A DNA stretch of 62,633 nucleotides, counting the filler, from Stramenopiles sp. TOSAG23-6 (Eukaryota): the NCBI GenBank assembly GCA_900128565.1. It is 16 parts of 16 records of this genome, joined end to end, with 100 filler letters (N's around TTAATTAATTAA, not from the genome) between each part and the next. Parts side by side here need not be neighbours in the genome. Positions count along the whole stretch, not along the records: positions 1 to 3,840 come from LT637355.1; positions 3,941 to 7,777 come from LT637356.1; positions 7,878 to 11,713 come from LT637357.1; positions 11,814 to 15,649 come from LT637358.1; positions 15,750 to 19,583 come from LT637359.1; positions 19,684 to 23,513 come from LT637360.1; positions 23,614 to 27,438 come from LT637361.1; positions 27,539 to 31,361 come from LT637362.1; 8 more parts are not named here. One strand, written 5' to 3'. Positions within the stretch are counted from its first letter, which is position 1; every line of letters begins with the position of its first letter. Made by a program: the position numbers and the translations under genes. The notes under the pieces are model-generated. The model worked only from the letters and a program-made list of their open reading frames with translations, searched no databases and was not told the DNA's origin. Shown in pieces: positions 1 to 62,450 of the stretch.

Positions 1-295
1 TTTTTTAGATTTTTTAGATTTTTTAGATTTTTTAGATTTTTTAGATTTTTTAGATGTTTATCATTTTTAATCGTTTTACTATTTTTACTATTTTTACTAT
101 TTCGTGTGGTAGGGTTAGGGTTTGATCCATTGTCAAAATTATATGGACCATTTTTTATTCGATTTTTATTACTCTGTAAAAGTCGATTACAGTTACTTAA
201 ATTCACTTCACGCATCTGTGCAAATCGATGTTCAACTCGTTCAAGAGCAAGACGGTCATTTACTAAATGGAAAATATTTTAAAATTTGAAATGGG

Positions 296-327
<32 letters not shown>

Positions 328-1226
328 GGGAAAAAAATTTTGTTTAAAAAAAAAAAAAAATTTTAAAAAAAAAAAAAAAAAAATTTAAATTCATTTTTTT
401 TTTTTTTTTGTGTTTAGGTACAAAATTTCGTATGAAAAAACGAAAAAAAAATTTAAAAAAAAAAAAAAAAAGTAGGGTTAGGGTTAGGGTTAATAGGGTT
501 AGGGGTAGACGAAACACATACATTTTCATGTACCGCATAAGCAAAACAAAAATCACAAACTCGAACGTTCCCATTCCGTCCGATAAGTTTCCCATCGTAC
601 GTTTGTGCGGAACAATTACTACAAAATATTTGACCACAAAATCGACAGTGATGTCTCCGTTTGAACATTGTAAATGGCGTATAACAGCTATGTATTTTGG
701 AAAAATATTTCAAAAAAAAAATTTTTTTCTAAAAAAAAAAATCGTTAGGTACAAAATTTCGTACGAAAAATAAATTCGATTTTTTTTTTACCGGAAAAAA
801 AAAAATAAAACATACATAGCAAACTTTACATGCTTCGTTGGGCATATAAAACTTATCCGTAGTGAGTGCGTTTCTTTGCGATCTTGAAGATTGTTCTGTT
901 TCTTGTGACTTCTTTTGTTGTAATGATAATAATTCATCTTCAAAGTTAATGTATCCTTTTTTTGATGATCCAGGGGATGGAAAAGATGTAATTTTTCTTG
1001 GATCTGTGTCAAGCTTCGGCATCGACATTTTTTTTTTGTTTTTCTTGGTTTGGTCAAGTTTTGGCATGGATTGTGTTGTATTGCTTGGGTTTGTATCTAT
1101 ATCTATGTCACGAATAGGACTTGTATTACGTGAATTGGGTGATTCATTCGTCATGTGATGGGAAGAACGTGTCTCTACAATCGAATTTGTCTTTGACTCT
1201 TTTGGTGTAAAGAATGGTTTCTTCAT
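1..1226 (-). CDS. FYVE zinc-finger protein (FAB1/PIKfyve-like N-terminus), partial; introns 690-815 and 258-521
   Basis: Spliced YMPNEACKVCY|SCYTPFTMFKRRHHCRFCGQIFCSNCS...VRVCDFC contains the FYVE R(R/K)HHCR motif. Confidence 0.85.
690..815 (-). other. Non-canonical GT-AT intron (family member)
   Basis: GTATGTTTTA...GTACCTAAC...CCAAAATACAT. Removal restores the FYVE C-Y-S-C pair; the AG 2 nt further on gives a frameshift. Confidence 0.85.
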
Positions 1227-1686
1227 TTGAAAAGTCAACCGTAAAAAATGTACTCTAAATCGTAAACAATACTTTAAAAACGAATTGTCATACTATACAA
1301 ATAAGCAAATCAAATAAAAAGAGTGAATATAGGTATTTGTTGTAGTCTTGGGCGTACAATTTAGTACCTAAAACTCTCGTATAGTTATATTATTAAGATG
1401 ATTAAAATTTGGGGACGTGACCGATTTGATATTTTGACTGGTTCTGATTTTGAAAAATTTCAATTTTGCGGTTTGGCCAAAAAAAACACGAAATCCCCCG
1501 AAGCTGTTTCGCTTGTCGCTGTTCTTTTTCATTCTCTTTCGTGATCCACATACACACACACACACGACAGACAGACAGACAGATCTTCAGTTTAGTTATA
1601 GTAGGTACAGTACTAAATCCAATTTCATTCATTTCATTCTATTAGAATAAATACATTAGGGATAGGTTGTATTAATTATACTAGTG

Positions 1687-3363
1687 ATGGATTCTATGTC
1701 ATCTGATACGGCTGCAGGTGTTTGTTCAAGGCGTGAAGTTCAACTCTTCAAAGAAGCTTTTCTGCACTGTTCCAATGGCAAGAAATGGTTATCTTTTGAC
1801 TCTTTTGCTTTAGCTGTTGGAATTCCGATTCCACAAAATATATGCAAAACGAGTAATTTTATACATGCTTTATATCGTCTATACTCTGTAGATAGGTTAG
1901 GTCAGAAAATGGACACCACAGGCTTCGTAAAATGTATGGTACAGTTGGCATCAGGCAATAGACAATCCAAAATGAAACTTTTATTTGAGTTAGCCGACGT
2001 GGATAATGATAAACGTGTTCGAGTGAGTGAACTACTTGATCTTATCCGTGGAATGAAAGTATTATTCACATCACTTGATGGCCAAGAAAGTTCTATAGAT
2101 GATGAAATTTTACAAGAAGTAGTTCAAAAACTATTTCTAACATGTCCTAGTGACAAATCAAAATCAACTAATTCAAAAAATAATGGTAACTCAAAAAATA
2201 ATCAAAAAAAAAGTATCACTTTACCTGAATTTCAACGTGCATTATCAGAAAATGATGGTGTTTTAGAAGCAGCTCTTTCATTCAATTCAACATCTTCTGA
2301 TGAATGCTTCTCTACTCTAGACCGAGTTAATGTTTTAAATACAAAAGTAAACGAAATTCTTGAACATTTTTCTAACCCTAACCCTAGGGTTAATCTTGAA
2401 CAATCTTCAGTTAATGCTACAAAATTGACGTCAATCGATACCCCTAACCCTACCATAATAAAACACAATGAAATGAACAGTACAACAACAAATAGTATGA
2501 ATGAAGAGAATTGTCTTCGAGGATTGATATTATCAAAAAGAATTTCATTAGAGTTAAAATCATTACAACATGATTTATATAAAATTTTAGAATATAACCC
2601 TAACCCTAGAAGGAAAAATAACCCTAACCCTAGAAGGAAAAATAACCCTAACCCTAGAAACCCTAGAAGAAAAAAATGGAATTATCTTTGTGATGGAAAT
2701 ATTTTTCAAATGATACCAAAAATTTCTGGAGATTTTGAAGAAATTGAAAATCCAAAATTACGAACATTATACTTACAAGCAGAAAATGAAAGATTACGTG
2801 TACGTTTTTTTTGTCACATTTTTTTTTTTCATAGTAAAATTTTTCATAGTAAAATTTGTACCTAACGAAAAAAAAAAAAAAAAAAAAAAAATTTTTCAAT
2901 TTTTTTTTCATAGTAAAATTTGTACCTAAAAAAAAAAAAAAAAAATTTCTTCAATTTTTTCACAGTACATAAATTAATCAAACAATATGAAAAAAATCAT
3001 ACCATTTATTCAGAAAACCCTAACCCTAATGTAATTCATTCGATGATAAGTCAATATCGTGTTTATAGTACCGAATTAAATCAACAATGTGATATAAATG
3101 ATTATAGTGAAAACACTGATAATTTGTACTTACGACCTTTGCATACGTATGTTCTATTTATATTTTTTTTTTGAGATTTTTTGTATTTTGAAAATTTTTT
3201 TTTTTTTGAGATTTTTTTTTTTTTGAGAATTTTTTTTTTTTTTTAGAATTTTTTTTTTTTTGAATTTTTTTTTCGTACAAAATTTTGTCCCTAACAAAAA
3301 ATTTTAGATTTTTTTTTAATATTTTTCTACAATATAGTATCCTCATCATTCTCCAATGGATGA
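1687..3363 (+). CDS. EF-hand (calcineurin B/recoverin-like) domain protein, partial; introns 2800-2970 (GT-AT) and 3147-3337 (GT-AG)
   Basis: KMKLLFELADVDNDKRVRVSEL EF-hand motif; frame is kept across both introns. Confidence 0.75.
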
Positions 3364-3407
3364 NNNNNNNNNNNNNNNNNNNNNNNNNNNNNNNNNNNNN
3401 NNNNNNN

Positions 3408-4552: not shown

Positions 4553-7023
4553 TTATTCCTTTTTCAACCAGCTATATTCCCAAAACTCCCAATCACCACT
4601 ACTAACCAAATTTCTGATTTTGTCTTTCATTTGACCATTAGTTCTTCTTTTTGTACAAGAAAGTTCACACTTGGTCCTTACCTCTTGAAAAAAGGCTGAT
4701 GGTAAATTTTTCTTTGAACCTTTAGGGGGTATTAAACTTCTATTAGATCTTTCAAAAGCTTGTTTAAAGTCTGCTGTTTCTTCAGGTGTCCATTTCCTCC
4801 TCTTTTGCTGTTTTCCTTTTTTTGAAGCAGATTTACTTTTACCAGATGATTTACTTTTACTAGATGATTTAGATGGTGGATTTTCACTAACATATTTAGA
4901 ATAAATTGTCCCAAGTAGTTCATTCATAATTCTTTCTTGATTATCTTCCCAGTTAACAAAGTCAACAAAACGATCCTGAGCAATTTGATAATAAATAGTA
5001 TACTTTCTTTCCAATAATTGAACCCACCACAATGCAAAACTATGAGGACATAAATTGTCAAAGTCATGAAGTGAACTTTCACAATTTTTTGGAATGCCTA
5101 AGGGTACTAAATTACCTTTTACTATATCTTTTCTAAGTATATCAGAAATTTCTCTCTTGAAAACCTTTAAAAGAATAGGAGGTCTTTTTTCAACAAGCAT
5201 AAACTGATTATCTCTTTTAGCTTTATCTTTAACATCATCCCAAACACCATTAACAAAAAAAGAGATTTCATTTATAATCCTAATTGATCTCTTCTTATCA
5301 GTCAATGAATTACCATGAGGTTTAATAACAATACTATGAAACCTCTCAGGATTTTTATAAATATCCAAATGAATAATATTATGCAAAGTCTTATAAGATT
5401 TCAATTGTAATAGATTTTGTTTGTCATCATCTGTCAAATTTCTTGTTTCTTCTTCCTCATCTTTTGAAACAGCATTTATAACATTATTATCATTCTCCAC
5501 AATAATCAAATCACTAAAATCTTCAAAATTTTCAGTACTAGGATTTTTAGGATCAACAAAATCAGAATTTTCAACAAATTCAGAATACTCAGCACTATTA
5601 ATAAAATCATCAAACTCTTTTGAAGATGTAATATAATTACTTACAGCAGCAACATTAAAAAGTCTTGAAAAATGCTTCAAATACTTTGCCAATGTTTTAG
5701 AATCTTCTTTCCATCTATGTTGTCTAACAGTTTCTGGAATTCTTCCCATTACAGATTGATTCTTATTATTCATTAAAAAATTAATTGCCCATTCTAAAAT
5801 ATAACCAGCTCTAAAACCATGTGCAGAAGTCCAACCAAAAGGATATCCTGCAGCATATAATAATTCATGAATATAAGGATTTACTAAAGATGAAGCTTTA
5901 TCATTATCTGTATCAGGTTTCCTAAAGTCATGTAGAAACATGTTTTTTGGAAAAATATTTCAAAGAAAAATTGTTAGGTACAAAATTTCAAAAAAAAAAA
6001 AAATGAATTTGAAAAAAAATAAAACATACAAATTTTCCAAGTTTTTTCCATCACAATTTTTAAAATCACTCAAAATTCCATCTTCAAAGCCTCTATTTAT
6101 AAGAGTCCAATGCAACCAAAATACTAAGTCTATAAATATTTTCTTATGATCAGCAGTCTCATAATAAAGAGAACCTTCATAATCAATCTCATGACTAAAT
6201 CCAAATTCTTCACCTTTTGTGTGTTCATATGTAATAGTAACTTGAATTTTAGTATCAATATTAATTTCAGAAACATCTTTACCTTCTCTTCTATATTTTT
6301 GCTTTAAATAATTATATCTTCTTAATCTTTTAATAACATTTTCTTTATCATGTACTTTAACATTTTTAAGCTCTACTTTAGCATTTGTAGCCATCATTCT
6401 ATGTCCATTTATTAAACTGTGAAGACATATACAATATATTTTAGGTCCTTGTGGAGTTGAAATATATTGATTTATAATCATACCTTTCATATACATATTC
6501 CACATATCTTTATACAGTATTGCTGCAGCTCCCACAGAATCTTTATATTGTTCAGGTAATAATTGAAGATTAGGATCTCCATTAGTTTTTTTAGATTCTT
6601 GAAGAATTGATGTCATATATACTGAAATTGCTTTAAATGCTCCTTCAGGGGTAGGTAACACTGTATAATCTTTCCATATGATATTTTTTGTCATTATATA
6701 TTTCAACTTGTTCACATACATATCTTTAAAGCTATTATACTTCATTCTTTTTTTTTTCCCAAGTAACAAATTGACATTAACATAAAATCTGATAAAATCT
6801 ACATGCATTCTTCCACCATCTCCAAGAACTATATCTTCATCTTTAACATGTGGGTTTTCTAACAAAAATTGTTCTTTACACATTTCTGTAAACTCTGTGA
6901 AAGAATTTTCAACTGTTGCATATTTTTTTTTTGCATTATTTGTAAAATTAGGCAAAGGAGGTTGTGCAGCAAAGTTTATCATACTAGATGGGATACCATC
7001 TAATAAATTCCTGGATTGTCTTG
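4553..7023 (-). CDS. Tyrosine recombinase-like protein with C-terminal telobox-type Myb domain (779 aa from Met at 6982); GT-AT intron 5940-6029
   Basis: Candidate catalytic motifs in YR order: INGHR, HTKG, AHGFRAG (HxxR), HRW...LAKY. C-terminus RRKWTPEE...RTNGQMKDKIRNL. Frame is open back to an intron-type 3' end at 7024. Confidence 0.7.
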
Positions 7024-7074
7024 ATGTATTTTGGAAAAATATTTCAAAAAAAAAATATTAAAAATATTGTTACT

Positions 7075-7270
7075 AGGAAATTTCAAAAATACTGATGAAA
7101 AAAATTTCAAAAATATGACTAAAAAAATTTTCAAAAATATCACTGAAAAAAATTTCAAAAATATCACTGAAAAAAATTTCAAAAATATGGATGAAAAAAA
7201 TTTCAAAAATATGACTGAAAAAAATTTCAAAAATATGACGAAAAAAAATTTCAAAAATACGGATGAAAAA
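7075..7270. repeat. 21-bp tandem repeat (AAATTTCAAAAATATGACTGA-like, ~9 copies)
   Basis: Visible periodicity; produces the spurious KNFKN-type ORFs. Confidence 0.9.
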
Positions 7271-7572: not shown

Positions 7573-7931
7573 TGAAATTTCGCAATTTGAATCTGCTTAT
7601 ATATAAAGAATAATTTTTAGTAATTTTGAGATATTTGTTATAGTTGCATATTTTTTTTGATATTTGTATGTATCTGATATAATTTGCATTGTTAAATTCA
7701 TAAAATTGTAACAAATGATGTTATTGCATTGATACACAAAAAAAAAAAAAAAATTAGGAACAAAATTTACTATGAAANNNNNNNNNNNNNNNNNNNNNNN
7801 NNNNNNNNNNNNNNNNNNNNNTTAATTAATTAANNNNNNNNNNNNNNNNNNNNNNNNNNNNNNNNNNNNNNNNNNNNGTACGAAATTTTGTACCTAACGA
7901 TTTTTTTTTGAAATATTTTTCCAAAATACAT

Positions 7932-8425: not shown

Positions 8426-9815
8426 TTACATTGAAAAAATACTTCTCATTTTCTGATAGTTTGAAGCATTTACAAGACGTGGCTTGGTTAAAATGAATGC
8501 ACTTGTTTTACACAATCCGGTATCATCGGTTTTATCATATTTATTTTTGTTTTTTTGTATTTCTCGGAACTCTGATAAAACAAATTTTGTCCGAGTTAAA
8601 TAAGGAAATGCCATTTCCTGATTAAATGTAGAAATCATGATATAACGGCCACCACGTCGAAGAACCCGTGAAACTTCAGATAGTAATTGTAATGCACTTT
8701 TATTTGCATCATTTAAATCACACGCGACAGAATCTGTGAGTCCTTTATCAATGATACAATCAAAGCTATAATGCTTGAAAAATATTTTTAAAATTTGAAA
8801 TTTGTTAGGTACAGAATTTTCTATGAAAAAAATATCGAAATTGAAAGATAAAAATGTACGTATCATTAGAAAATTCAAGTGATAAGACATCACCAACCTT
8901 ATATGTAATCCCTATTCTATTTTTATCTCTTTCCTTGGAAAATTGTATCGCTACCGGGGAACAATCCACGCCTGTAATATTTTTAAAACCATCATCATAC
9001 AAATTTGAAGTGACGTCACTTGTTCCACAACCAATATAAAGTATTTTATCGGTAGGTTTTAGATACTGCAGTAATATACTTCGAAATTCAGGATATTTCG
9101 CGTACCATTCTATTGAAAAATCACTTTTTTTGGCTTCGTATTCCTTGTTCCAAAATTGTTTTTCATGAAAAGATATATTTTTATATTTTCCTTGACGAGA
9201 ACCATTAGAGCTTGTAATTTGATGTTTATCATTTAAGAGTAATTTATCAATTTGAAGTTCTATAATCATAACAATGACGTATACTATTGGAATAATAAAC
9301 AATGCGAGAAGTATAGTTAGTTGTATAGGCCACCAGCGCAAAGATAAATAGCCATAACACAGTGTGTTATTTAATAGCTGAACACGAATTGGAGATATTG
9401 ATCGACTTGAGGATGCAAACGTATCAAATAAAGCATTTATACTTAACTCACCAGAGTTATTTGTTTCTGTTCCCGAAATGGGGTATATATCAAGTACAAT
9501 ATCTGACGGTTCCAACAAAGTGTCAAGTGGTGAGATTGGACGGATTTCACCAGTTTCCAATATAAGAGTAAGCCAGCCACGAAGCATTGTAAGAAAAATA
9601 AATATACCACACGCGCATAATACTGGTCTACATGTGAAAAAAATCCATAGGTCTGTTTTCATATGATATAATAAACGTTTTGATAATGCACGTACAAAGT
9701 GAGTCTTGGGTCGGTGCAAACTACTTTCTTTTCTTCCACCACAATTTACACACGTCCAAAATCCAAAACCTTTATTAGTGTTGAGAAAACCACAATCCTC
9801 ACAACACCAACTCAT
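8426..9815 (-). CDS. RanBP2-type Zn finger + hydrophobic segments + class I SAM methyltransferase (METTL13/EEF1AKMT4-like); GT-AG intron 8766-8859
   Basis: WCCEDCGFLN...CVNC; FWNKEY..EWY; ILYIGCGTS; spliced FSNDT|FDCIIDKG; EVSRVLRRGG. Confidence 0.8.
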
Positions 9816-15649: not shown

Positions 15650-15854
15650 NNNNNNNNNNNNNNNNNNNNNNNNNNNNNNNNNNNNNNNNNNNNTTAATTA
15701 ATTAANNNNNNNNNNNNNNNNNNNNNNNNNNNNNNNNNNNNNNNNNNNNTTTTGAAAAAAATTTAAAAAAAAAAAACAAAAATTCGTTAGGGAAAAAATT
15801 TCTTACAAAAAAAAAATTCGAATTTAAAAAAAAAAAAAAAAAAAAAAAACATAC

Positions 15855-41866: not shown

Positions 41867-41902
<36 letters not shown>

Positions 41903-42074: not shown

Positions 42075-42130
42075 CGGATGAGATGTATGTTTTATTTTTT
42101 TATTTTTTTTTTTTGATAAAAAAAAAATCG

Positions 42131-42165
<35 letters not shown>

Positions 42166-42197
42166 AAAATTTTTTTTTTTAAAAAAAATTTTTCCCC

Positions 42198-42229
<32 letters not shown>

Positions 42230-43907: not shown

Positions 43908-44860
43908 ATGGAAATGTTATCTTCAGCGCAAGATAATGGTGGGGTAGAGCCTCATTTAAAGTCTCATTCTGAAAAGTATGAGATATTTATTAGTAATCCA
44001 GACTTTAAATTCAATGCAGCGCACTTTATAGCTTACAAAGGATATCGAGAACGTCTACATGGCCACAATTATCGTGTATCTGTTCGAGTTAAAGGGCGAC
44101 TTGGTTCAGATGGATATGTTGTTGACTTTGGGGATATTAAAAAGTCAACGAGACGAATCTGTAAAAGTTTAAACGAGGTATTTATTTGTCCTACTTTAAG
44201 TGATTGTTTGAATATAACTCATGTGAATAGTGTAGACGGTAAAGCTGGAAATATTGATATAGAATGTGAAGATGGTGCGCGATTTAGTTTCCCATTTGGT
44301 GATTGTGCCATGCTACCTATTGCCCATACTTCATGCGAAGAGCTAGCGAAATATGTGTGTTTTCAGGATCAATTTTAAATTTATTTATTTTTCGTACGAA
44401 ATTTTGTACCTAACAAAAAAAACAAAAAAAAAGAAAATATTTTCCCAAAATACATGTGTGTAATGTCATACTTGAAGATATGAAAATTTCCGAGTTACAA
44501 TCCCGTGGAGTTTCTTCTTTCGAAGTCGGTGTCGCAGAGCGTAAGAATCAAATGGCACTATACGCTGTTGATATATTACCAAAAGTGTCTCAAAATAATT
44601 TGGTTCCACCTAATCTCAAAATGTCTGATTTGAATCTGTCTGATAGAGAATCCAATCTCAAAATGTCTGTTTTGAATCAAGTTAGTCCTGGAATGATTAC
44701 TACTATTTGTGATGAAAGTGATGATAAAAATATTGATGATGATAAAAATATTGATGATGATAAAAATATTGATGATGATAAAAATATTTATGATGATAAA
44801 AATATTGTTGTAAGCGATGGTAATGAATCAAACGATACAAGTAGTAGCAGTGAAATATAG
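43908..44860 (+). CDS. 6-pyruvoyl-tetrahydropterin synthase / QueD family; GT-AT intron 44355-44455
   Basis: FNAAHF, ERLHGHNY, VVDFGDIK, EELAKY|V, EVGVAE. Confidence 0.9.
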
Positions 44861-45069
44861 TTCAGACTTATTTTATTCCTATGTCAAGTAGTAAAACGAT
44901 TTAAAAATAAGTTTCATTTATTGTTTTGATGCATCTTTAGCATATCTCAGGATTTTAATTTTTTTTTTATAGTAAATTTTGTACCTAAACAAATTTTTGA
45001 TTTTTTTTTATCTCAGGATTTCAGGTAAAAATAAATTGTTAGTTACATAATTTGGAACATGAAAAACAT

Positions 45070-46738: not shown

Positions 46739-47184
46739 CGCTGGTGTATTGTGTTTCACTTTTTGGTGGTTGTAGAATAGTAGATATCGAAAGTTATATC
46801 ATATAATATGTTTCTTTTGGCTAAGAGCGAAGCGTCCAGAAGTACTAGGGACTTTCCACTAGAGATTTTTTTTTTCTTTGTAGCCCTAACCCTAGGCTTG
46901 TCGTTTTGTGGTACCCGGTTCCATCGGTTCGCTCGCAATATTTGAATTTGCAAAAAGGTGAACAGTGAGCAGTGAGCGAAATAGTGAACATTGAGCGAAA
47001 AATGGATAAAAAGGTAGANNNNNNNNNNNNNNNNNNNNNNNNNNNNNNNNNNNNNNNNNNNNTTAATTAATTAANNNNNNNNNNNNNNNNNNNNNNNNNN
47101 NNNNNNNNNNNNNNNNNNGTTAGGTACAAAATTTCGTATGAAAAATAAATTCGATTTTTTTGTTAAAAAAAAAAATAAAACGTA

Positions 47185-48301
47185 CATCTTTTGCTTGTTT
47201 CTTTATTAAATCTAGGATATGTTGATGATCATTTGCATAAGCAATCATTTCAGGTGTAGAACCATCAGTAGATGCCTTATACACATTTGCACCATTAAGT
47301 ATTAGCATTATAGCCGTCTGCATCTGACCTCTTTCAGCTGCATAATAAAATGGTGTAAAACCTTGAGCATCGCCTTGATTACAAAAGTCTCTTGCTTGTA
47401 TATAACCCTGTTCACCTCGTTTTTTAGCAGCATTTAAAACAATAGATAGACAAGTTTCCTTTCCCCATTTTGCCGCTTCGTGACATGCTGTAGCACCATT
47501 TATACTTCCACCACAACAAACATCTGCACCAGCTTTTAATAGTGTTTTTAGTGAATCTATTTGTCCATGTCTTGCTGAGAGTGCAAGTGCAGTCACGCCA
47601 CCACTATCACTGGGTGCATTCAAATCGGCACCTCCCTTAATTAAAATTTCCATAGCCTTAATTTGTCCTTCCATTGATGCTAGTCCAAGTGGAGTACAAT
47701 AATCAGTTTCTATTGCCTGAGAATTTAATGGAGCGCCTACATGTATAAGTAAATGTAGACATTCAAAACTTGACATTTGTGCAGCAATGTGTAGAGGAGT
47801 GAAGCCTCGACAGTCACGCAATTGTAAGTCTGCACCAGCGTCAATACAAAAACGTAAAGCATTTGATTGATTGTTTTCCGCTGCAGCGTGAGCAGGTGTC
47901 TCACCGGAATAACTAGCTTTATTCACATCAGCACCTTTAAAACATAAAAACTTCACAGCATCTGCATGTCCTTGAAAAGCAGCTGTTAGCATTGGAGTTT
48001 TACCAGCGTAACTAGAGTGTGAAGTATCAGGATTTTTCAGGTCATTTTCAACTTGTAGCTGAATAGTTCGAACACGCCCATCTGCAGCAGCTGCGCACAT
48101 AGATGGACCTTCGGTATAATGTTGATCTATATCTGTATTCTTAAACTGAAGGAAAGCTACAAACTCTTCTCTTGTAATATTTCCATTTTGGTCCTTTTTA
48201 CAAAGTTTCCACTCTTCTTCATCAAACTCGTCACCTGAAAGCTTTCTTATTGTCTTTTCATCTAATATAGGCGGTAAACCACTTGATATTACTCCTCCCA
48301 T
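47185..48301 (-). CDS. Ankyrin-repeat protein with MG (myristoylation-like) start, first exon
   Basis: About 8 ankyrin repeats (TPLHIAA etc.). Confidence 0.9.
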
Positions 48302-48578: not shown

Positions 48579-49284
48579 ATGGCGACAGAGTCAAAGCAAT
48601 ATTCCTCTTGGGATTTGCAAGAGGATCATTCAGGAGATACTGCTGATAGTATAAAGCGAGTCGCATCAGAAGAAGTATTTCGTCGACTGCGTGGTAAAAG
48701 CATTGACCAACTTTCTCCTGGTTGGTTTCATCCGGCTCGTAAACTGAATAAGCCAACGGCTGTATTTAGTTTAGTCTCAACTATAGTTGGTGGTGGTGTT
48801 TTATCTCTACCATTTGCCTTTGCAAAAATGGGAATTATCGTAGGACCTTTGCTTCTCTTCACATGCGCTATCCTATCAGAATATTCAATTTCTTTACTAA
48901 TTAAATGTGCTCGTATGTCTGGTGCTGAGTCTTATGAACAGGTTGCAAGCTCAGCATTTGGTAAGAATTCCAAAATAGTTACAACATTGCTTATATTCAT
49001 TCTTACATTTATATGCTGTGTAGCGTATATTATTCTCATGGGAGATATGTGGGGCCCTCTAGTCAGTTATGTGTTTCATTTCAATACAGAAAAAGGAACT
49101 TCAGGTCGAACATTTTTGCTCATCGCGTGTACGTTTCCATCACTACTTTCAATTTTATTCTTTTCATAGAAAATGTCCTACCTAACGATTATTTTTTAAA
49201 TATTTTTTCATAATACATGTACAGCGCTTGTTGCCCCGTTCGGGGCTCTTCGTTCTTTACACGCTCTTCGATTCACATCAGTAT
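48579..49284 (+). CDS. Amino-acid transporter (AAAP/SLC38 family), N-terminal part; GT-AT intron 49129-49218
   Basis: FSLVSTIVGGGVLSLPFAF, SYEQVA..AFG, spliced LVAPFGALRSLHALRFTS. Confidence 0.88.
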
Positions 49285-49396
49285 GTATGTTTTATTTTTT
49301 TTTTAACAAAAAANATCGATTTTTTTTTTCGTACGAAATTTTGTACCTAACAATTTAAAAAAAAAAAAAATTTTGAAATATTTTTCCAAAATGCAT

Positions 49397-50814
49397 GTTG
49401 TTGCTGTAATGAGTTTCTTAACTAGATGCCAATGCCCTCGTGAACAATATGAAATACTTTCCGTGATTCTGAAAACAATTCATCCCAATAACCCTAACCC
49501 TAGTGTACGTTTCGTTTTTTCCATACGAATTTTTATAATTTTTATAATTTTTTTTTTTTTTTTATTTTTTTTAAAATTTTTTTTTTTAATTTATTTTTTT
49601 TTATTGTCAGAAAATTTCGTACCTCACAACAAATTTATAATCATCAGAGCTTTTGAAATATTTTCCTACAATACAAAATAATAAACAAAATAATACTCAA
49701 AAACAAAAAATGTCTACGCCTAATTTAAGTGATTCATCTATATGCAATCATAAACTACTTCGACTATGTAAAAGTTTAGTTGGTGTGATTTGTACAATTC
49801 AAGATAAGCAAACTCATGCACGTTTTCAAAATTGAATTTCAAATTTATCTTTTTTTTTTTATAGTAAATTCTGTACCTAACGAATTTTGACTACATTTTT
49901 TTTTTCACAATATAGGAGAGAATTCAAATGGATGAAATGAATATTCGAAATAGATTGTCTTCAATGGATCTTTTATTTTCTTCTCAACCTGTGCAAATAC
50001 GTGATTCTAACCCTAACCCTACGTCTCTTTATAATAAAAACGACTCAAATATGAAAAATAATAATTCAAAAATGAAATATGATTTACATATATCAAGTAA
50101 TATATTACATGTGAAAAATAATTCAAATAATTCAACTGATACGTCTACTATAAAGAATAATGTATGTTTTATTTTTTTTTATTTACCGAAAAAAAAAAAT
50201 CGATTTTTTTTTTTTTTTTCATAGTAAATTTCATACCTAACAAATCTTTAATTTTTTTTTTTGAAATATTTTTACAAAATACATGTAAGTGGTATCGACA
50301 TTTTACTGTTTTTATTGAAATCACCTGCTGCAGAAGTTAGACATATGTATGTTTTATTTTTTTTTTTTTGTATGAATTTTTTTTTTTTGGTTTCGTACGA
50401 AATTTTGTACCTAACAATTTTTTTAGAATTTTTTTTGAAATATTTTTTCACAATACATGAAAAGTCTTAAACAATCCAAAGAATTAAGTCTTGCATTACT
50501 TAAAAAGAAACAAAATGATGATGCAATATCAAGTGGCCATACTACAGAAGGTTTTGAAAAAGCAAAAGAAGGGTTGCAGAAACAAGTTGAAAAACTTCAA
50601 CAAGAAAATAATAAAAGAGAGGCTGCAGATTTTCAAAAATTACAAAAGTCTCAAGAAATGTTAAAAAATGAATTACAAACACGAAATCAAATTCTGGGAC
50701 AACTACATCAATTATCTGCATCATTAAACAAATTACATTATAGACAAGCAGCAAAAGAAGTAAGCTGGACATTGTCTAAAGGTGAGCATCATTTTACAGA
50801 AGGAGAGGATCCAT
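49397..50814 (+). CDS. Exons of one or two unrelated soluble proteins (possibly BEACH-protein-like and coiled-coil)
   Basis: Short in-frame exons separated by family introns 49505-49676, 49818-49915, 50162-50284, 50347-50458; not transporter-like. Confidence 0.45.
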
Positions 50815-50818
50815 GTAC

Positions 50819-50861
<43 letters not shown>

Positions 50862-50871
50862 AATTTTTTCC

Positions 50872-50920
<49 letters not shown>

Positions 50921-51024
50921 TTTTNNNNNNNNNNNNNNNNNNNNNNNNNNNNNNNNNNNNNNNNNNNNTTAATTAATTAANNNNNNNNNNNNNNNNNNNN
51001 NNNNNNNNNNNNNNNNNNNNNNNN

Positions 51025-52138
51025 CATGAAAAAGATGGTCACGATCATAAACATGAAAAAGATGGTCACGATCATAAACATGAAAAAGATGGTCACGATC
51101 ATAAACATGAAAAAGATGGTCACGATCATAAACATGATCATAAAAAATCGGAGAGTCATTCCCATACAACTCATAAGCACAAACATCATAAGCATGTCCA
51201 ACGGCATGATGCGTTAGTAACGTCTGTTGGATTCGTTGAAGAAGGTAAACTTGATTTTGACGTGTTAAATCATTGGATCACTGAATTTTTACTTTTAAAT
51301 GGAATAGAAAAAATATTTCGTTTAAAAGGATGTTTAGATATTGAAGGTGAAGATAACGTGTTTGTGTTACAAGGCGTTCACCAAGTATGGAATATGTCTC
51401 CATTCGGTAAATGGCCTGAGAATACAAAACGAAAGAGTAAAATTATTTTTATAGGTAAAGGTCTTGATAAAGAAGAAATAAAACTTGGTTTCAAAGGTTG
51501 TGTAATTGGCACTGATGAGCACAAAATTGCTCGTGAACAGCTGGAAGAATTGTGGGACAATGAAGAAGAGGAAAGACAACGTCAATTGAAATTTGATCAA
51601 GAAAATACAGAATATGACGTCACTATTCATAATGGACAAAATGGGTTAGGTTTACTCCTAAAACAAGAAGTTAGTGTCCAAGGATTCCCTGAAGTTCGTG
51701 TTGCTGGTTTTCGTCCACTCGCCAAAGGCCTTGTCAATAATGTACGTTTAATTTTTTTGAAAATTCTAATTTTTTTTTATAGTAAATTTTGTACCTAACA
51801 TTTTTTTTAGATTTTTTTTGAAATATTTTTCCAAAATACATGCTCGTATGTCAAACAAAATTGCACCAGGAGATATTCTTATTGCAATCAATGGATCATC
51901 TGTACGTGGGCTTCCACTTATTCCAAATGTTGTATCTTTATTAAGACAATTTCCTCGTGGTGAAGGTTCCATGGGTGCGATGATCACACTTACGTTTCGT
52001 ATGGGTGATTCCAATTATATGCCATTAGCTCAAGTGCAAGGCTTAAATAATGTCCCAAACCCTAACCCTAATAATAAACGAAATCGGGTAGAAAATGATG
52101 CTGCTCCAGCACCTAAAAGACAGCGTAGTGCTGCGTAA
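51025..52138 (+). CDS. CobW/COG0523 C-terminal domain + PDZ, with His-rich 27-bp repeats; GT-AT intron 51742-51841; 5' partial
   Basis: IFRLKG.L, FVLQGVH, SKIIFIGKGLD; GLGL..., KIAPGDILIAING. Confidence 0.85.
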
Positions 52139-52493: not shown

Positions 52494-53728
52494 TCAGTAA
52501 TTTATAAAAGTACGAAATTCATTAGCTCCCTTCCACCCTCGTTCCTTCTGTAACGATTTCGCAATAAAAGTTCCATGCTTTACCGATCCAGTTTTTGACT
52601 CCATATTAATATGTTTCCTAGGTATATCTAATGCAGCCATAAAATGCATATTTTCTTCTTCATCAGCAGATAAAGATCGACGAAGTCTCCCATTATTGAC
52701 TTTTGAAGCACATTTTGAGAGAAACTCGTGCATATTTTCATAATCTTGAGCTGTGAAGTCTGAATTGTTCGTATTTAAATTCTCTTCTAAAATATCTTTC
52801 TCGTAATTCATATATTTTTTTTGTCTATCTTCCAAAAGTGATTGACATCGAATATCTTCAAATGTTTCTCGTGTTAATGTCGTAGGTGAATTCGTAGAAC
52901 GACGATATCTTGCCCAAGGGACATCAAATTCTTTCATGTTCTTATAGTCAACTTCAGAAAATGCTTCCAATGCATCACGTTCATCCTCTTCGGCATCCGT
53001 ATCGTATAATATATTTTCTTCTGAAAGTTTTCTCTCTAACACGGCCATTGTTTTAAGATCTACCATATTTTCTTCGGATAACGTACGCGGTCGGTCAGTT
53101 TTACTTGCCCATGGAACATCCCATTCACTCATATTGATGAATTGTGAAAAATACTCAAAACGTTTTGTTGTTAGGTACGGAATTTCACACTTAAAAAAAA
53201 ATATAATTATATAATGAAAACGAACACGTAATCATTAGGATAGAATGCTTCTTTAGTGTCATGCTCATCTTCAAAGTTAGCATAAATATCAGTACCAATG
53301 TCTAGTTGTTCCTTTGCCAACTCATTTGCTGCTTCTGTCTTATAATAATCGTCTTCGTCGTCACTTTCAAAAACACGAAATAGAGACATGCGTTTGAAGT
53401 CGTCATAATCTTCTTGAGATATTGTCCGTGGACGTTTAGAGACTTTTAAGTCAAACTCATTCATATTTGTATAATCACGCCATGTGAATTTTTCTCCGAT
53501 ATCCTGTGTAGCTTCCTCATCATCACTATCATATAATTCACCGTACTTTTCAGATATCTTTCGCTCTAAAGTGGCCATTCGAACCAAATCGGCATTTTTC
53601 TCTACTGATAATGTACTGGGTCTTCTCTTCGCTCGCGAATCAGGTGCCCACGGTACATCAAACTCATCCATATTGACATAATCTTTCTTTGTCATGTCAG
53701 GTTGAGACTGAAATAATGAAGCCGTCAT
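52494..53728 (-). CDS. Unknown repeat protein (5 DYxNMxEF(DVPWA) units); GT-AT intron 53137-53225
   Basis: Splicing restores DYVNMSEWDVPWA, matching the first repeat DYVNMDEFDVPWA. Confidence 0.8.
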
Positions 53729-54721: not shown

Positions 54722-54929
54722 AAATATTCAAAAAAAATATTTAAAAAAAAAAATCGTTAGGTACAAAATTTACTATACAAAAAAAAAAAAAAAAAAAAAA
54801 TTCATAAAAAAAAAAAAAAAAACGTCCAANNNNNNNNNNNNNNNNNNNNNNNNNNNNNNNNNNNNNNNNNNNNTTAATTAATTAANNNNNNNNNNNNNNN
54901 NNNNNNNNNNNNNNNNNNNNNNNNNNNNN

Positions 54930-57900
54930 ATGTATTTTGGAAAAATATTTGAAAAAAAATCTTAAAAAATTTGTTAGGTACAAAATTTTTTTACCAAAAA
55001 AAAAAAAAAATAAAACATACATGCAAATGAAACAAAATATGTAAACGGCGGGATCGCAAATCCATATAATATAAATACTAAAATCACAGATTGAAGACTT
55101 TTGTCACTCGTTCTAACATATGCATCCATTTCAAATAAAAGTAGAATAATCAAACTTAAAATAAAAGGTAAGAGAAAAATACAAAAATCCCAAATGTAAT
55201 TGGATAACCAATATGTATATACATTAATTCCAGAAACAAGTTGTAAATGTTTTGATTTTTGTTGCCTCTCTCGAACGATATGAACACAAAATTGCGCAGG
55301 GACAAATGCAAAGCCGAGAGAGATAAAAATTGAAGCAAATAAACCTTGAATTCCTCCAATGATTTATTTTGGAAAAATATTTCAAAAATTTTCTAAAAAA
55401 AAATTGTTAGGTACAAAATTTTTTTACCAAAAAAAAAAAAAATCGATTTTTTTGTTAAAAAAAAAAAAATAAAACATACATTGTTTGTTCGGGTAAAGTT
55501 AGAGGAAGAGGGTAATTGTTGACACGTATCATTGGTATTTCATCTTTGCTATGACTCAATTTCGTTGCGGATATCCAACGCAATACTGAATTAGATAATG
55601 TATTCAATGCAAGTGGGGCTCCATGTATTGCAGTGTAATTATGTATTAGTGTTGCTCTAGTTACAGATATTATACTTGTTTGATTATTTTTAAATCCTGT
55701 ATTTGACAAAATTCGTGATGCAAATTCTTTTGAATTGATTTCAGCATCAGGTAACCAAAGTCCAATATATCTAGAACTAGCCTGATTATTTCTAGATGCT
55801 TCAAAATAATCAACAATATTCTGTAATCGATTTTTTTCAGTTATATTATTTCGTTGTGTATCAAATGGTGGGAGGAAGGAGGTGACATCAATAGGTTCAA
55901 GACGTTCTTTTTCCAGAGATTTTGAAGATAAAAAACCAAACCCTTTCAAATGTTTTACTAATAAAGATATTGTACTAGATGTTGATGAACTACAAGAAAC
56001 ACCATCACCAACATAATCATCAATACATTTACATTGATTTTCTTTTTGTTTTTCCATAGATGAGTCACAATTGGCTAATACACTACAAAATCCCATGCCA
56101 CACTTTTTTCCAGAATGTCCAACGTTATCACGATAATTAAGAGCTCCCATATCTTTTGTATCAGGAATATGAGGAAGTTGAGGAAAAAGACCACTTTTTG
56201 ATAAGACACTTTCCCAATCAAATGGAATATTATTCATGAATGATTGAAATAAATCCAATTCTGATTTTGCTGAAATTGCTACTTGATCGTTATACGATAA
56301 TCTTTTTTCATATCTAAATCTACTTTCCGAAATAAAAGGTACAATATTTCTCATATCTCTCTGCCCTGAATTCATAAATTCCATGGTAATAGGTATAGAA
56401 TGTATTGTAGAAAAATATTTCAAAAAAAAATCTAAATTTTTTTGTTTTTTTTGTTAGGTACAAAATTTTTATAAAAAAAAAAAATCCATAGTAAAAAAAA
56501 AAAAAAAAAAAAACATACATGCGACTGTGGGGAAGGAGATGTTATCAATGCAATCATAGCTAGTAATACAAACAATGCGGGTAGTAACGCTGTAGTTGAG
56601 ATAGCTCTATAATCGCGAATGAAATAAATAATTCTTTTATGAAGTAAAGCTTTCAGATTTGAACTAAACGTCGTCGGTTTCGTTGGAACAGAACCTCCAT
56701 ACGATACACAATTATTTGAAGTAGTAGAACTCTGTGACATGTCTGTCGTGTTTAGAATAGTTTTCGACTGTGGAATGTGTTTGTGTAAAACAGTAGTGAT
56801 ATCATCATCATTATCATCATATGGATCATTATCATATAGATCATTATTATTAAACAGTAATGAAATGGCTGATGCTTTTGCTACCTCCGAAGATATTGAT
56901 GCAGATATATTTTCTTTTGGTTGATGTCGATTCGATTTTGTATTTTTTGTATTTTTTGTATTTATGTTTTGATTTGATTTTGTATTTGTATTTATGTTTC
57001 GAGTAGACTTTGGATTTATTTTGTTTTTTGTATTTTTTGTATTTGTATTTATGTTTCGAGTAGACTTTGGATTTATTTTGTTTTTTTCCGACGTACATCT
57101 AGAATGATCTATATTACTTTTTTTTTTTTTTTTTTGTACCAAATTCCGTACCTAAATGACCACACGTCATTGTATGGTTAATATTTCCACTATTTCCAAC
57201 TTTTAAAAATACTTCTTCTAATGTAGTTACAGATAATCCAAAATTTAAAATTCCTAATTTGTCTTTTTTTGTATTTATTTCCATTAATAATTCCTCAAAA
57301 CAATTTGAGAATTCAAATGGGAGATGAAAACTAATTTCAGCACCAATATTTGATAATAATGAAGCCTCTGGGCAATACGTATAAATCAAATCGCTAATCA
57401 TTGATGTTTTGGTTTCATCATTTCCATCATTTCCATCATTTTCATCATTTCCATCATTATAATGAGTAATACTAGTACAATCATGATCAATATTTTTTAT
57501 TTGTAGTGATTTTTCAAAAAATATTTGATACCCACAGCCATACATTTTTTTCAAAAATAATGAAGAACCAACACAACTTAATTGTCCATCAGACATGATC
57601 GCAATACGATCTCCCAACAAATCAGCTTCATCTAAAAAATGAGTTGTCAAAACAATGACTTTGCCTTGGCGATGTTTTTTTATCACAAGTATTGTGAAAA
57701 AATATTTTTATTTTTTTTTATTTTTTTTGTTAGGTACAAAATTTACTACGAAAAAAAAAAATTCATACAAAAAAAAATAAAACATACATCCCACGTAAAA
57801 CGTCTCGAATATGGATCCATCCCGCTTGTTGGTTCATCAAGTATAACCACTTTTGAATCGCCTAGTAATGCATGTATTTTGAAAAAATATTTAAAAAAAA

Positions 57901-58732
57901 AACCCTAAAATTTGTTAGGTACAAAATTTTCAAAAAAAAAATTTCGAATTTGAAAAAAAATGTTAGGTACAAAATTTCGTACGAAAAAAATTTCGATTTT
58001 TTTGTTAAAAAAAAAATTAAAACATACAATAGCTAAAGAAAGTTTTCGTTTCATTCCACCAGATAAATTATTTATATACGAATTTGTTTTAGCAGTTAAA
58101 CCAACTTCTGCTAATATTGTTGTACATGCTTCATTGAGTATTGATGCGTCATCTGAGATGTTTTTTAATACTGCAAAAATTTGTAAATGTTCCATGTATT
58201 TTGGAAAAATATTTGAAAAAAAAAAACGTTAGGTACAAAATTTCGTACGAAAAAAAAATCATACAAAAAAAATTAAAACATACATACAAGTAAGATCTGG
58301 CCATAAAACATTATTTTGAGGACAATAACCAATATTTTTTCGAATGTGTTTCATATCATCTAATACATCGGTACCTAACATTAAAACTTCACCTAGAGTT
58401 GGCGGGAAAATTCCTGTCAAAATATTTAATGTTGTTGATTTTCCTGCGCCATTATGACCTAATAAAGCAGTGATTTGTCCTTCATACATTTTGAGATTGA
58501 GATTATTTACAGCTGTTTTTGTTCCATTTGTCGTATCAAATTCCTTGACAAGATTTTTAATTTGTATACATCGATCTTGTCTCGCTAACTGAACTAAATC
58601 ATTTCCAACAGACTCTTCTACTGTTTTATATATATGTATTTTGGAAAAATATTTAAAAAAAAATTTGAAATTTTTTTGTTAGGTACAAAATTTCGTATGA
58701 AAAAAATATTTTGGAAAAATATTTAAAAAAAA
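54930..58732 (-). CDS. ABC transporter subfamily A, internal fragment; introns 58194-58283, 57872-58027, 57687-57787, 56400-56518, 55362-55479, 54930-55020
   Basis: [70 protein letters not shown]. Confidence 0.93.
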
Positions 58733-59267: not shown

Positions 59268-59861
59268 TTCTCTGAATGAAATATGTTTTCTACGACACTT
59301 TCTCTGCAGCGGTGGAATATTAAACAAACAAGAAAGTATTTGTTTACACGAATTCTTTACGAAATTTAGAACAAAAAAATGATATAAAGAATTGTTTACA
59401 CGAAAACCATCACAAAAAGAAACAAAAGATATATTTTACACGAAATCATTAAATATGTTATTTTCGAAAATGGAATTTAAATTGAGGCTAAATTGACAAA
59501 AAACAAAGATCAAACTTTCTAAAAAATTTTGTTTAGCTGTGTGTTCGACAAGCATAACGTGCTCTTGTTATAATAGGAAAGAGCCCGTGGTGCTTCTCAA
59601 ACACCCCCTGTTCTTTTTTATTTATTTTGAGTCTGAAGCCGGATTTATTTCAAATAAATAGAAATATTTTTTGTTTTGAAGTTTAAAATGCTATAGAAAA
59701 AGAAAGAAAAATTTTGAAAATGTTTTTGTTTTATATACAATTATTTGTGCAAAATATGATTTGTATTCAATTCCTATGAGATACAAATGTTTTTTGTTGA
59801 TTTCGTTTTGCTTTGTATGAAATATTGAGATGAGTGAATTGTGGTGGCATTGGCAAAGTTG

Positions 59862-60316
59862 CTAGCCATGCTGCGTTTGCATTAGTTCTGTCGGGTAGTG
59901 ACAATCTAAATGCGCATGCTCAGCACCTTTACGTAGCATTGTCACGTCTCCGACACTGTCTTCAGCGTTTGATAAATTTTCGTTTAACAATTTTGCCAAT
60001 TCTTTTACGTTTCCTGGAACATCTCCGTCTTTTGTAAACCAAAATAGCACAGCTCCGCCATCTTCTAGCATGCCATTTGGTTTTACCTCACGTAAAATTT
60101 CTTCTTTGCAATTTGTTATTTCAAGTATATCGTTAAAATCATACAATGTTTGATACTTAGGAGGTTCCGTTCCATCTTCATTGACTTTTGTAAAACAAAG
60201 CATGTCAACTTTTCGCGTTGGTATGAATGTCCCTTCTTTGCATTTTGGAGGATGTTGTGTGCATCCTTTTCTTGATAAAATCTTACTTTGTTTTTCTGTT
60301 CAAATAGAAAGTACAA
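59862..60316 (-). CDS. Possible small or frameshifted hypothetical gene
   Basis: Two overlapping short ORFs with protein-like composition; no motif. Confidence 0.3.
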
Positions 60317-60492
60317 ACAAACAACACAGAAGAACGATTCAAAGAGTCAGCAAAAGTGTGACGAAAAAAGAGCCAGCAACAGTGTACGAAAAAAAGAAAA
60401 TTAACTACGAAAATTTGTACCAAAATTTATCAAAAGAATCCTATAATCACTCCAGGAACACCACCCGTAACCTGGGGTGTGATATATACATA

Positions 60493-62450
60493 TCAAGAAT
60501 AATCTCTCTCTGGAATCTCCCATGTATTGTGAACAAAAAAACACGAAATCATGAAAAAAAACATTAGGTATGAAATTTTGGTACAAAAAAATAAAATTTG
60601 AAATTGAAAACGTACATGCAATCTCCCCTGTATCTGAATGTTTATAAATGTATTCATCACTGATTTCATCTTTTTGTTTGATCCATTTTTCTCTTTCCAG
60701 TTGCATAAGAAATTTTCTACTGTACTTAAAAAAATATTTCAAAAAAAATCATTAGGTACAAAATTTCGTATGAAAAAAACAACTAAATTTGAAATTGAAA
60801 AAAAAATAAAACAAACACTTCTGCAGTTTTTTGACGATGTTTTTCAACTTGATTTGTTCTTTTATATAAACGTATGAGTGGTGAAAAATATTTTTTTTTA
60901 GTAAAAAGAAAGTTGTTAGGTATGGAATTTAAAAAAAAAAAATTCATTAGGTACGAAATTTTGTATGAAAAAAAAATTAAATTCCAAATTCAATATTGAA
61001 TACGTACAAACGGACATTTTTCATATATTGTGTATATCCTTTCCATTGATTAAAAATTCTCATGACACTTTGATTAGCCATGTAATTTTGGAAATAAATA
61101 TATATTTTTTTTAGGGTTTGTTAGTTCTTTAAATTTCATGATACACAAAAAAAAAATTTTAAAAAATATATTTTTCTTAGGTACAAAATTTCGTACTAAA
61201 AAAAGAAAATTAAAAAAACTACAAAAAAATTTAAAAAAAGTTTAAAAAAAAATTAAAAAAAAATGTTTAGGTACAAAATTTCGTACCAAAAAAAAAACGT
61301 ACATACGCCATATAGTTTGTCGTAATATTTTATACTCTCTATCAATTCGTTGTTTTTCTTTTGTTACAAATTTTTGTACATATTTATGTTGTTCAGCTAA
61401 AATTAAAGTTTTAATTAAATGTTTATATTTTTTGGATGCTTTTTCTATTGTAATTAAATTAGTGTTAGGTTGATATGTTGTTGTTGTAGGTGTATTCTTA
61501 TTTTTATCTACAGAATTAAAGTACGAAGAAGATTCGCTAGGGTTAGGGTTCTCGAGAAGAATTTTATCCCATACAATATTTGATTGTTGTTGTTCAAATT
61601 CATTCATTTTTAATTCTACTTCATATTTTGGATGTTTTCGATTCTCATTTTCTTGATTTTGTTTTTTTTGTAACAAATCTAATATTGTATCAAATTTATT
61701 CTGTTGTTTGATGGTTAATTCTGAAATACCTTTTTTTATATTTCGTGTTTTAATTTTTTCAATTTTTGTAATTGTTTTATTTTTCAATTTTTCAATTTTT
61801 GCAATTTTTTTATCAATATTTTTTGAATGTTTTCTAATTTTTAATTCAATTTTTTTCTTTTTTTTTTCACGTAGCGCATCTGAATTTTGTTTTTCTTTTT
61901 TTTTTTCATTCATCACTTTTTCAAATTCTTCATTTTGTAACCGTTGAATTAATTCAGCAGTTGCTTTTTTTTCTGCTTTTTCGTGTAATAAAAGAAGCGC
62001 TTTTTTTGTCTTGATGGCTGTCCCTGTATTTCAAAGTAAATATGTACAATTTGAATTTTGTTAGGTGTGTATGTATGATATAAAAAAAAATATAATTTTT
62101 AATAATAATAATAATGATAAAGTTGAATAATAATTTGAAAAAAAAAAAAAAAAAAATTTTAAAATTCAAAAAATAAATTAAAAATTGGAAAAAAAATTAA
62201 AAAACGTACAAGCTTTTGTTTCCGCATTGACAAGATTTTGTTTTGCTTTTTCTCTATATTCCTTGGATAATTTTGCTTCTTTCATTGTAGTGACTGTAGC
62301 AAGTTTCATTTTGACTAGATCTGCATTTCTTCGACACATAAAATATTCATTTGGTGGCTCGCAGACAGTACGGGTACCCGGTTCACTTTTATTTATACAT
62401 TCACATTTATGAAATAATATATTTTCTGCATTCCATTTTATTATATACAT
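60493..62450 (-). CDS. Coiled-coil protein with C-terminal WW-like domain; introns 62023-62209 (AG), 61080-61302 (AT), 60874-61007 (AT), 60720-60816 (AG), 60522-60615 (AT)
   Basis: Six exons in one frame; spliced WIKQKD...YIYKHSDTGEIA|WEIP. Confidence 0.75.

Follow-up and report, generated by a model that had tools for sequence, protein, structure and literature searches.

Spliceosomal introns bounded by GT and AT are rare and are mostly of the U12 type, with one conserved U2-type example reported in DGCR2. They have been reported in animals and in Physarum, which indicates that GT-AT splicing chemistry is feasible; they number 4 in human and account for 17% of the 1,014 non-canonical U12-type introns of Physarum, and carry U12-type signals. 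The present work concerns a 62,633-nucleotide stretch (the window) of the genome assembly of Stramenopiles sp. TOSAG23-6 (GCA_900128565.1), which harbours a family of similar introns with the same boundary pair in 34 of 43 complete introns within 62 kb, and in which the signals are U2-like.

The family resembles the introners of Micromonas pusilla and Aureococcus, MITE-like transposons that generate introns, which are also near-identical short introns in unrelated genes of marine protists and in which the element gives one splice site and the target-site duplication the other, as is proposed here. Those introners end in the canonical AG, duplicate 3 bp of their target and are bounded by clear terminal inverted repeats, whereas the copies in the window have AT, a putative 2-bp duplication and an inverted repeat limited to GTAT/ATAC. 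In Fritillaria borealis, introns derived from miniature inverted-repeat transposable elements (AG-AC and AG-AT) have a non-AG 3' site that copies the exon end, exonic TAC in that case and (Y)AT here; 3' AC and AT/AU ends are spliced in this species and its U2AF paralogs have diverged. However, Fritillaria is an animal with non-GT, diverse 5' ends, while the host of the window is a stramenopile-like protist whose introns combine a textbook GTAYGT, a strong branch box and one dominant boundary pair. The repeated introns of Amoebophrya, another marine protist, have direct repeats of 3-5 nt across their borders, but they show no preferred dinucleotides and carry inverted repeats of 8-20 nt that pair the intron ends, in contrast to the uniform termini of the window and the end pairing in 13/43 introns. 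Introner surveys depend on annotated introns, and unfamiliar splice sites are screened out. With regard to related organisms, the main text of the paper on marine stramenopile (MAST) single-cell genomes appears to mention introns only in its methods, and 'intron' and 'splic' are absent from the Incisomonas paper. A literature search covering articles, with supplementary files outside its reach, found no published account of this family, nor any in which GT-AT introns form the majority.

Census and anatomy of the intron family

A family profile built from 6 copies and run on the whole window gave 58 matches in 49 regions. Intron ends were set by the family consensus and not by reading frames, and curation resulted in 43 complete introns with both ends visible, in substance the approximately 44 complete insertions counted in a first-pass annotation of the same DNA. 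Their 3' termini are AT in 34, AG in 6, TT in 2 and AA in 1, which reproduces the earlier tally for AT, AG and AA and lowers that for TT from 3. At the 5' end, 41 introns begin with GT, 1 with GC and 1 with AT. All 43 lie in sense orientation relative to the flanking reading frames, as had been stated for the copies in genes. The median length is 115 nt (range 89-255, with approximately 90-250 nt for the family), and 39 of the introns, distributed over about 20 genes, have family-profile scores of 12 bits and above; two score 0 bits, both of them AG-ended. Eleven extra copies are cut by blocks of N or have one end unclear, and the 3' end, visible in 5 of these, is AT in all 5. The copy at 3147-3337 and its inverted repeat at 3434-3624, across a run of N, were tallied once.

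A typical family copy starts with GTAYGTTTTA and continues with a T-run, accompanied in some copies by a short module, and with a palindromic core whose last letters are TTTGTACCTAAC; a second T-run leads to a 3' box that ends in CCAAAATACAT or CACAATACAT. The 5' site thus reads GTAYGTTT, the conserved core closes with a CCTAAC branch box and the 3' box reads ...AYACAT.

Reading frames and homology across the junctions

Exact removal of the introns leaves the longest upstream frame open downstream in 35 of the 37 testable introns (chance approximately 1 in 3), with intron lengths spread over all residues modulo 3 (15/13/15, n=43). One miss, the intron at 49281, is preceded by a 62-nt exon, and phase chaining from the previous intron does fit, provided that the donor is a GTATGT that precedes the start of the family sequence by 4 nt. 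The other, at 60615, is followed by the terminal exon, whose 9 codons complete a WW-like W..P motif.

Comparison with homologous proteins points in the same direction. In CPOX, the junctions CDTY/FYNKA and KFGYA/VPG (the stroke marks the intron position) are gapless against 13/13 homologs, while the borders of the GT..TT intron of this gene are beyond a homology check because it sits in a lineage-specific insertion. This Asn-rich insertion of approximately 52 residues around the intron (45623-45829 and 45321-45527, minus strand) is absent from the 13 homologs. In the ABCA-type transporter, three junctions of the nucleotide-binding domain are gapless in 12/12 homologs in alignments of the first such domain (NBD1), and one junction in the membrane domain is gapless in 7/12; in the other 5, gaps or insertions of 2-5 residues lie at this junction or shortly after it. 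The closest named protein, P0121, is identical to the ABCA exons of the window wherever aligned, and the next best matches come from brown algae and oomycetes; since the EukProt label of P0121 begins with GSMAST32, the host is treated here as a MAST-3-like stramenopile. The SNF2 exons flanking the intron at 42601-42741 map to consecutive residues in 5/5 solved chains checked, and a PDB search with the SNF2 exon at 42247-42387 returned zero matches. In the FYVE gene, the exon following the intron at 815-690 matches the profile from position 13 of 67 onwards. Pfam searches with short second exons yielded only a weak ABC_tran match.

All the junction motifs listed in the first-pass annotation (CKVCY/SC, CVYI/CCRWEK, CDTY/FY, LTCM/EHL, SLAI/ALLG, TGEIA/WEIP and NN/ARMS) were found in the sequence, and its claim that exact removal restores family motifs is supported for GT...(AC)AT by the frames together with the gapless homology at CPOX, the ABCA nucleotide-binding domain and SNF2. 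The observation of GT-AT introns is confirmed at the DNA level.

Splice signals

Positions +1 to +9 are near-invariant among the 43 introns. The 5' site has GT in 41/43, G at +5 in 41/43 and T at +6 in 43/43, a GTRNGT-like pattern of the U2 type, and the CTAA-type branch motif, present in 41/43, is located 24-55 nt upstream of the 3' terminus (median approximately 42, one outlier at 147) with a T-rich tract downstream of it, as in introns with a CTRAY-type branch and a pyrimidine tract. The GTAYGT 5' site and CCTAAC branch box described earlier are therefore present. With regard to the 3' site, position -2 is A in 41/43, position -3 is C or T in 42/43 and the last base is T in 36 introns, G in 6 and A in the remaining one, so that the terminal AG of U2-type introns is found in only 6/43. 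Furthermore, in 14 of 35 non-AG introns the reading frame indicates that an AG situated after the branch box and ahead of the 3' end is not used, and AG consequently does not mark the intron end. An AG-independent choice of the 3' site, as proposed in the first-pass annotation, is supported to this extent; the AT majority among the introns of the window, from which a majority class had been deduced, reflects one mobile family. An automatic scan for non-family introns between open reading frames was too noisy in AT-rich DNA to put a number on ordinary introns.

Folding does not suggest a hairpin-type pairing of the intron ends like that of the non-conventional introns of euglenids and Amoebophrya, as 4 or more terminal pairs form in the minimum-energy structures of only 13/43 introns. 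The mean fold energy is -12.6 kcal/mol, compared with -9.9 kcal/mol for shuffled sequences, and strong structure is therefore absent.

Signs of mobility

Many similar copies in sense orientation occur in unrelated genes, as is characteristic of introners. The upstream exon ends with T in 39/43 cases and with AT in 25/43, against a background of 10.6% (p=3e-14), and the following exon begins with G in 26/42 (p=2e-11). Direct repeats at the borders measure 0-5 nt in most copies and extend to 8 nt in the copy at 44355 and to 11 nt in that at 42388. A comparable arrangement is described for the Micromonas introners and the Fritillaria introns, in which the 3' site is provided by the duplication. 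AG-ended copies fit the family profile less well (median 20.7 versus 31.8 bits, one-sided p=0.015), a comparison slightly biased by the use of AT-ended copies to make the profile; this would be consistent with AG being an older or selected state of the 3' end.

A core-only fragment was also observed at 44940-45020, in which the 5' and 3' boxes are absent and a 12-nt direct repeat is found at the flanks. It hints that insertion may not always yield a 2-bp duplication.

Evidence from RNA and metagenomes

Read mapping covered positions 49315-50924, which include four complete introns. The mapped contigs amounted to 3,166 for the DNA run and 138-894 per RNA run, and nearly all of them represent other copies of the family. 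Uncovered parts of this region are uninformative, and apparent joints around 50284-50391 are due to repeat cross-mapping. A polyA-RNA contig of 249 nt (record 15) begins its alignment at 50457, which is 2 nt ahead of the predicted acceptor, and 5 of its letters stay unaligned; this start, a weak hint of splicing, resembles that of a spliced molecule because exon and intron share AT. Two further RNA contigs, records 8 and 16, which stem from separate runs within one study, track the exon to 50808 and then continue with 252 and 30 non-fitting letters, respectively. Their tails mismatch the next 116 bases of the stretch, and these contigs hence do not enter the intron.

DNA contigs from a seawater run, which are independent of the assembly, carry ...ACAT followed by G. 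The CAT ends are thus no assembly error, which settles in favour of CAT the earlier question of whether independent DNA would show CAG instead. A metagenome scan with a 17-base core motif gave 64 loci, which are chance matches as none of them (0/64) has a family match at E<=1e-3. Searches for transcript-derived proteins of the host gave a best match only 52% identical with a CPOX exon and 7 candidates, none of them significant, with the exon covered by RNA contigs.

Proposed origin and removal of the introns

The most likely account, and one that is probably correct, is that the introns form a mobile family of introners and that the major spliceosome removes them at a YAT 3' site. According to this proposal, a short non-coding mobile element (introner) would create spliceosomal introns, with each copy supplying a strong 5' site (GTAYGTTT), the palindromic core with its CCTAAC branch box, a T-rich tract and the ...AYACAT box. 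The AT at the end of the intron mirrors the dinucleotide that closes the upstream exon. In the simplest scenario, the element would have inserted at (A)T sites and duplicated 2 bp of its target, the duplicate becoming the 3' splice site. The major (U2-type) spliceosome would excise the introns from the pre-mRNA; it would read the 5' site and the branch normally and, in the second step, would cut after YAT approximately 42 nt past the branch, keeping the A at -2 and leaving the last base free (T, not G); the factors that recognise the 3' site may be altered. A broader proposition, that the major spliceosome of this uncultured marine stramenopile-like lineage has relaxed or shifted from YAG to YAT/YAN and that one introner has thereby seeded some ten thousand GT-AT introns, is conceivable but falls slightly on the doubtful side. 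The figure of ten thousand is an extrapolation from approximately 0.9 copies per kb in the window, and the family contigs of one seawater DNA run, which number in the thousands, fit it. The interpretation advanced in the first-pass annotation is partly supported; it overlooked the introner-type character of the repeat, the AT..AC reading of many copies and the precedents for GT-AT pairs and for 3' AT ends.

Several observations weigh against the introner account. As regards the insertion, 18/43 exon flanks are not AT, so that the target-site duplication is not clean; flank and 3' end are identical only for AT/AT (23) and TT/TT (1); an AT flank goes with only a slightly closer match to the profile (p=0.048 for all copies, 0.13 among those ending in AT), a weak effect; and the inverted terminal repeat comprises only GTAT/ATAC, or ATGTAT/ATACAT when the flank is included. 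As regards splicing, RNA contigs bridging any of the four complete introns in 49315-50924 were not seen, records 8 and 16 diverge 6 nt before the predicted donor at 50815, an unexplained offset, and the RNA libraries are rich in family contigs, including some in which intron 3' ends are joined to downstream exons of other loci; contigs of this kind are unspliced RNA or DNA carry-over. Additionally, 19/34 GT..AT introns can be written equally well as AT..AC, as their upstream exon ends with AT and a shift of both borders by -2 gives the same mRNA.

This ambiguity in register bears on the main rival, removal by the minor (U12-type) spliceosome or a transformed version of it, for which the natural register of many introns would be AT..AC and which is considered unlikely. 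GT-AT, AT-AT and AT-AA are rare boundary pairs typical of U12-type introns, GT-AT has been reported as U12-competent, and the set in the window includes, besides the formally AT-AC introns, one AT..AT and one GT..AA; the A at -2 is fixed while -1 varies, and GTATGTTTT and the Physarum variant GTATCTTT differ only at +5. Among stramenopiles, the heterotrophic Blastocystis has hundreds of minor introns, mostly AT-AC, and zero AT-AC minor introns are reported for ochrophytes. The signals themselves, however, do not agree with this rival: the 5' motif [AG]TATCCTT is not found and its ATCC core is absent, in line with the G at +5 and T at +6 noted above, and the CC of the 3' box is not conserved. 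The branch box of U12-type introns typically lies approximately 10-20 nt from the 3' end, a distance that is exceeded in the 41 introns with a branch motif. Furthermore, the AT-AC register is rejected by two ABCA junctions. At 58027/57872 (SLAI/ALLG), the GT register encodes the Ile found in 12/12 homologs and the -2 register Asn; at 57787/57687 (TWD/VI), the GT register gives Asp, where 12/12 homologs have Asp or Glu, and the shifted one Val. As far as residue conservation can tell, these two informative junctions support the GT register, and GT..AT is the sole description that fits all 34 introns.

Two other explanations are far less probable still. If the copies were elements excised from DNA, like the internal eliminated sequences of ciliates, the window would be an unprocessed genome; the insertions are indeed short, AT-rich and located in coding sequence with border repeats of 1-4 nt, and the RNA contigs mapped to 49315-50924 gave no proof of splicing. 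DNA excision does not require all 43 copies to be in sense, however, and would be expected to be independent of strand, nor does it account for the presence of GTAYGT and a branch box, for the frame at 49281, which holds only with a donor lying 4 nt ahead of the element, or for the elements held by independent seawater DNA contigs, all of which make it highly improbable. An equally faint prospect is that the true sites are nearby canonical GT-AG pairs, as in the public gene model, and that the restoration of frames by GT..AT is misleading. P0121 uses other junctions at all six family introns that it spans (54930-58633, minus strand), none of which it treats as GT..AT. Yet in doing so it loses or replaces residues conserved in 12/12 homologs (for example EHLQIFAV and ALLG), reads through, or translates intron starts, for instance as VCFIFFC; in the whole set, 18 of the 43 introns lack any canonical equivalent and 6 are canonical, and 35/37 frames fit exact removal.

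Features of the window

The window consists of AT-rich eukaryotic DNA (G+C approximately 22-39%) with genes for CPOX, an ABCA-type transporter, an SNF2 helicase and a TFIIB/BRF-like factor, as well as for FYVE, PTPS, ankyrin, amino-acid-transporter, LRR and WD40/fn3 proteins. Seawater metagenomes contain DNA near-identical to it, and 7-12% of sampled words of the window are present in seawater metatranscriptomes. An Rfam scan of the window gave no matches at the gathering score. The 2,047 N in the window are arranged in blocks approximately 3.9 kb apart, each consisting of 44 N, TTAATTAATTAA and 44 N (e.g. 3841-3940 and 7778-7877), with near-regular spacing; several introns are cut by them. 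The coordinates of the introns and of the partial family copies are collected in Table 1.

Table 1. Complete introns and partial copies of the intron family in the window
Feature	Position	Strand	Remarks
Intron GT..AT	267..521	-	255 nt, telomere-like repeats inside; AT end keeps frame, AG 4 nt downstream breaks frame
Intron GT..AT	690..815	-	FYVE gene
Intron GT..AT	2800..2970	+	Exon flank GT
Intron GT..AG	3147..3337	+	Inverted duplicate 3434-3624
Intron GT..AT	5940..6029	-	Exon flank TT
Intron GT..AG	8766..8859	-	Diverged copy
Intron GT..AT	16617..16725	-	Exon flank TC; 5' end tandemly duplicated (18 nt)
Intron GT..AG	16759..16890	-	0 bits to family
Intron GT..AT	27683..27843	-	
Intron GT..AT	27993..28162	-	Exon flank GT
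Intron GT..AT	28236..28438	-	Internal duplication
Intron GT..AT	28652..28766	-	
Intron GT..AT	39303..39416	-	Downstream masked
Intron GT..AT	39561..39682	-	
Intron GT..AT	41636..41740	+	TFIIB/BRF-like gene
Intron GT..AT	41811..41963	+	Downstream masked
Intron GT..AT	42085..42244	+	SNF2 gene, upstream masked
Intron AT..AT	42388..42497	+	SNF2 gene, 11-nt direct repeat at borders
Intron GT..AT	42601..42741	+	SNF2 gene; 5/5 chains colinear
Intron GT..AT	42864..42963	+	SNF2 gene
Intron GT..AT	44355..44455	+	PTPS gene, 8-nt direct repeat
Intron GT..AT	45211..45320	-	CPOX, exon flank CT
Intron GT..TT	45528..45622	-	CPOX
Intron GT..AT	45830..45919	-	CPOX
Intron GT..AT	49129..49218	+	Amino-acid transporter gene
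Intron GT..AT	49281..49396	+	Donor 4 nt upstream of family start
Intron GT..AA	49505..49676	+	
Intron GC..AG	49818..49915	+	
Intron GT..AT	50162..50284	+	
Intron GT..AT	50347..50458	+	RNA contig begins at 50457
Intron GT..AT	51742..51841	+	PDZ-like gene
Intron GT..AT	53137..53225	-	Exon flank GT
Intron GT..AT	54930..55020	-	ABCA gene, downstream masked
Intron GT..AT	55362..55479	-	ABCA gene
Intron GT..AT	56400..56518	-	ABCA gene
Intron GT..TT	57687..57787	-	ABCA gene, conserved junction Asp
Intron GT..AT	57872..58027	-	ABCA gene; Ile at junction shared by 12/12 homologs; exon flank TT
Intron GT..AT	58194..58283	-	ABCA gene
Intron GT..AT	60522..60615	-	Splits Trp codon of WW-like motif
Intron GT..AG	60720..60816	-	
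Intron GT..AT	60874..61007	-	Exon flank TT
Intron GT..AT	61080..61302	-	
Intron GT..AG	62024..62209	-	0 bits to family
5' part of family copy	43056..43110	+	Rest masked
5' part of family copy	50815..50924	+	Rest masked; RNA contigs diverge at 50808
5' part of family copy	47119..47185	-	Rest masked
5' part of family copy	27539..27614	-	Rest masked
5' part of family copy	15750..15854	-	Exon flank AG, rest masked
3' part of family copy	7878..7931	+	AT end
3' part of family copy	31462..31516	+	AT end
3' part of family copy	31279..31361	-	AT end
3' part of family copy	58634..58732	-	AT end
3' part of family copy	7024..7084	-	AT end, 5' end unclear
Family copy	54729..54829	-	5' end masked, 3' end unclear
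Truncated family copy	25617..25680	+	No clear coding context
Core-only family fragment	44958..45007	+	Between two convergent genes; 12-nt direct repeat flanks

Some irregularities were found in individual copies and genes. At 16690-16725 (minus strand), the first 18 nt of the intron occur in tandem and the frame is kept only from the upstream GTACGT. A perfect inverted duplicate at 3105-3666, around the N run at 3364-3407, includes one intron copy and is probably a chimeric assembly or amplification artefact. The ABCA frame shifts at 57117-57151 (minus strand) within an A18 run, where an intron signal is absent; this frame change was considered as a candidate intron and rejected, an error in homopolymer length being the likelier cause.

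Separately, the telomere-like 11-mer CCCTAACCCTA occurs in 32 copies in the window, compared with 0 expected, for example at 2376-2656, 16074-16543, 29360-30687, 49492, 50011 and 52060. On the sense strand of long open reading frames there are 23 copies, 22 of which share one frame and read xPNPx. As the identical nucleotide string recurs in unrelated genes, it looks like a second, tiny type of insertion and not a protein motif.

Implications for gene models and 3' splice-site choice

Gene finders limited to canonical sites fail on these introns, and the single comparable public model is wrong at 6/6 of them. The MAST-3 assemblies have been reported to contain 2,694-3,289 predicted genes in 19-21 Mb, with apparent pseudogenisation of dynein, and it may be hypothesised that unrecognised GT-AT introns could underlie both these low gene numbers and the dynein pseudogene signals. 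Should the shift to YAT/YAN be true, the published gene sets of such genomes would for the most part rest on wrong models, and it would be necessary to revisit their gene counts and 'pseudogene' calls. The family would also represent the cleanest case of its kind, with a canonical 5' site and branch; since only the last base differs, it would isolate the question of how the 3' splice site is chosen and why the last base of an intron is normally G.

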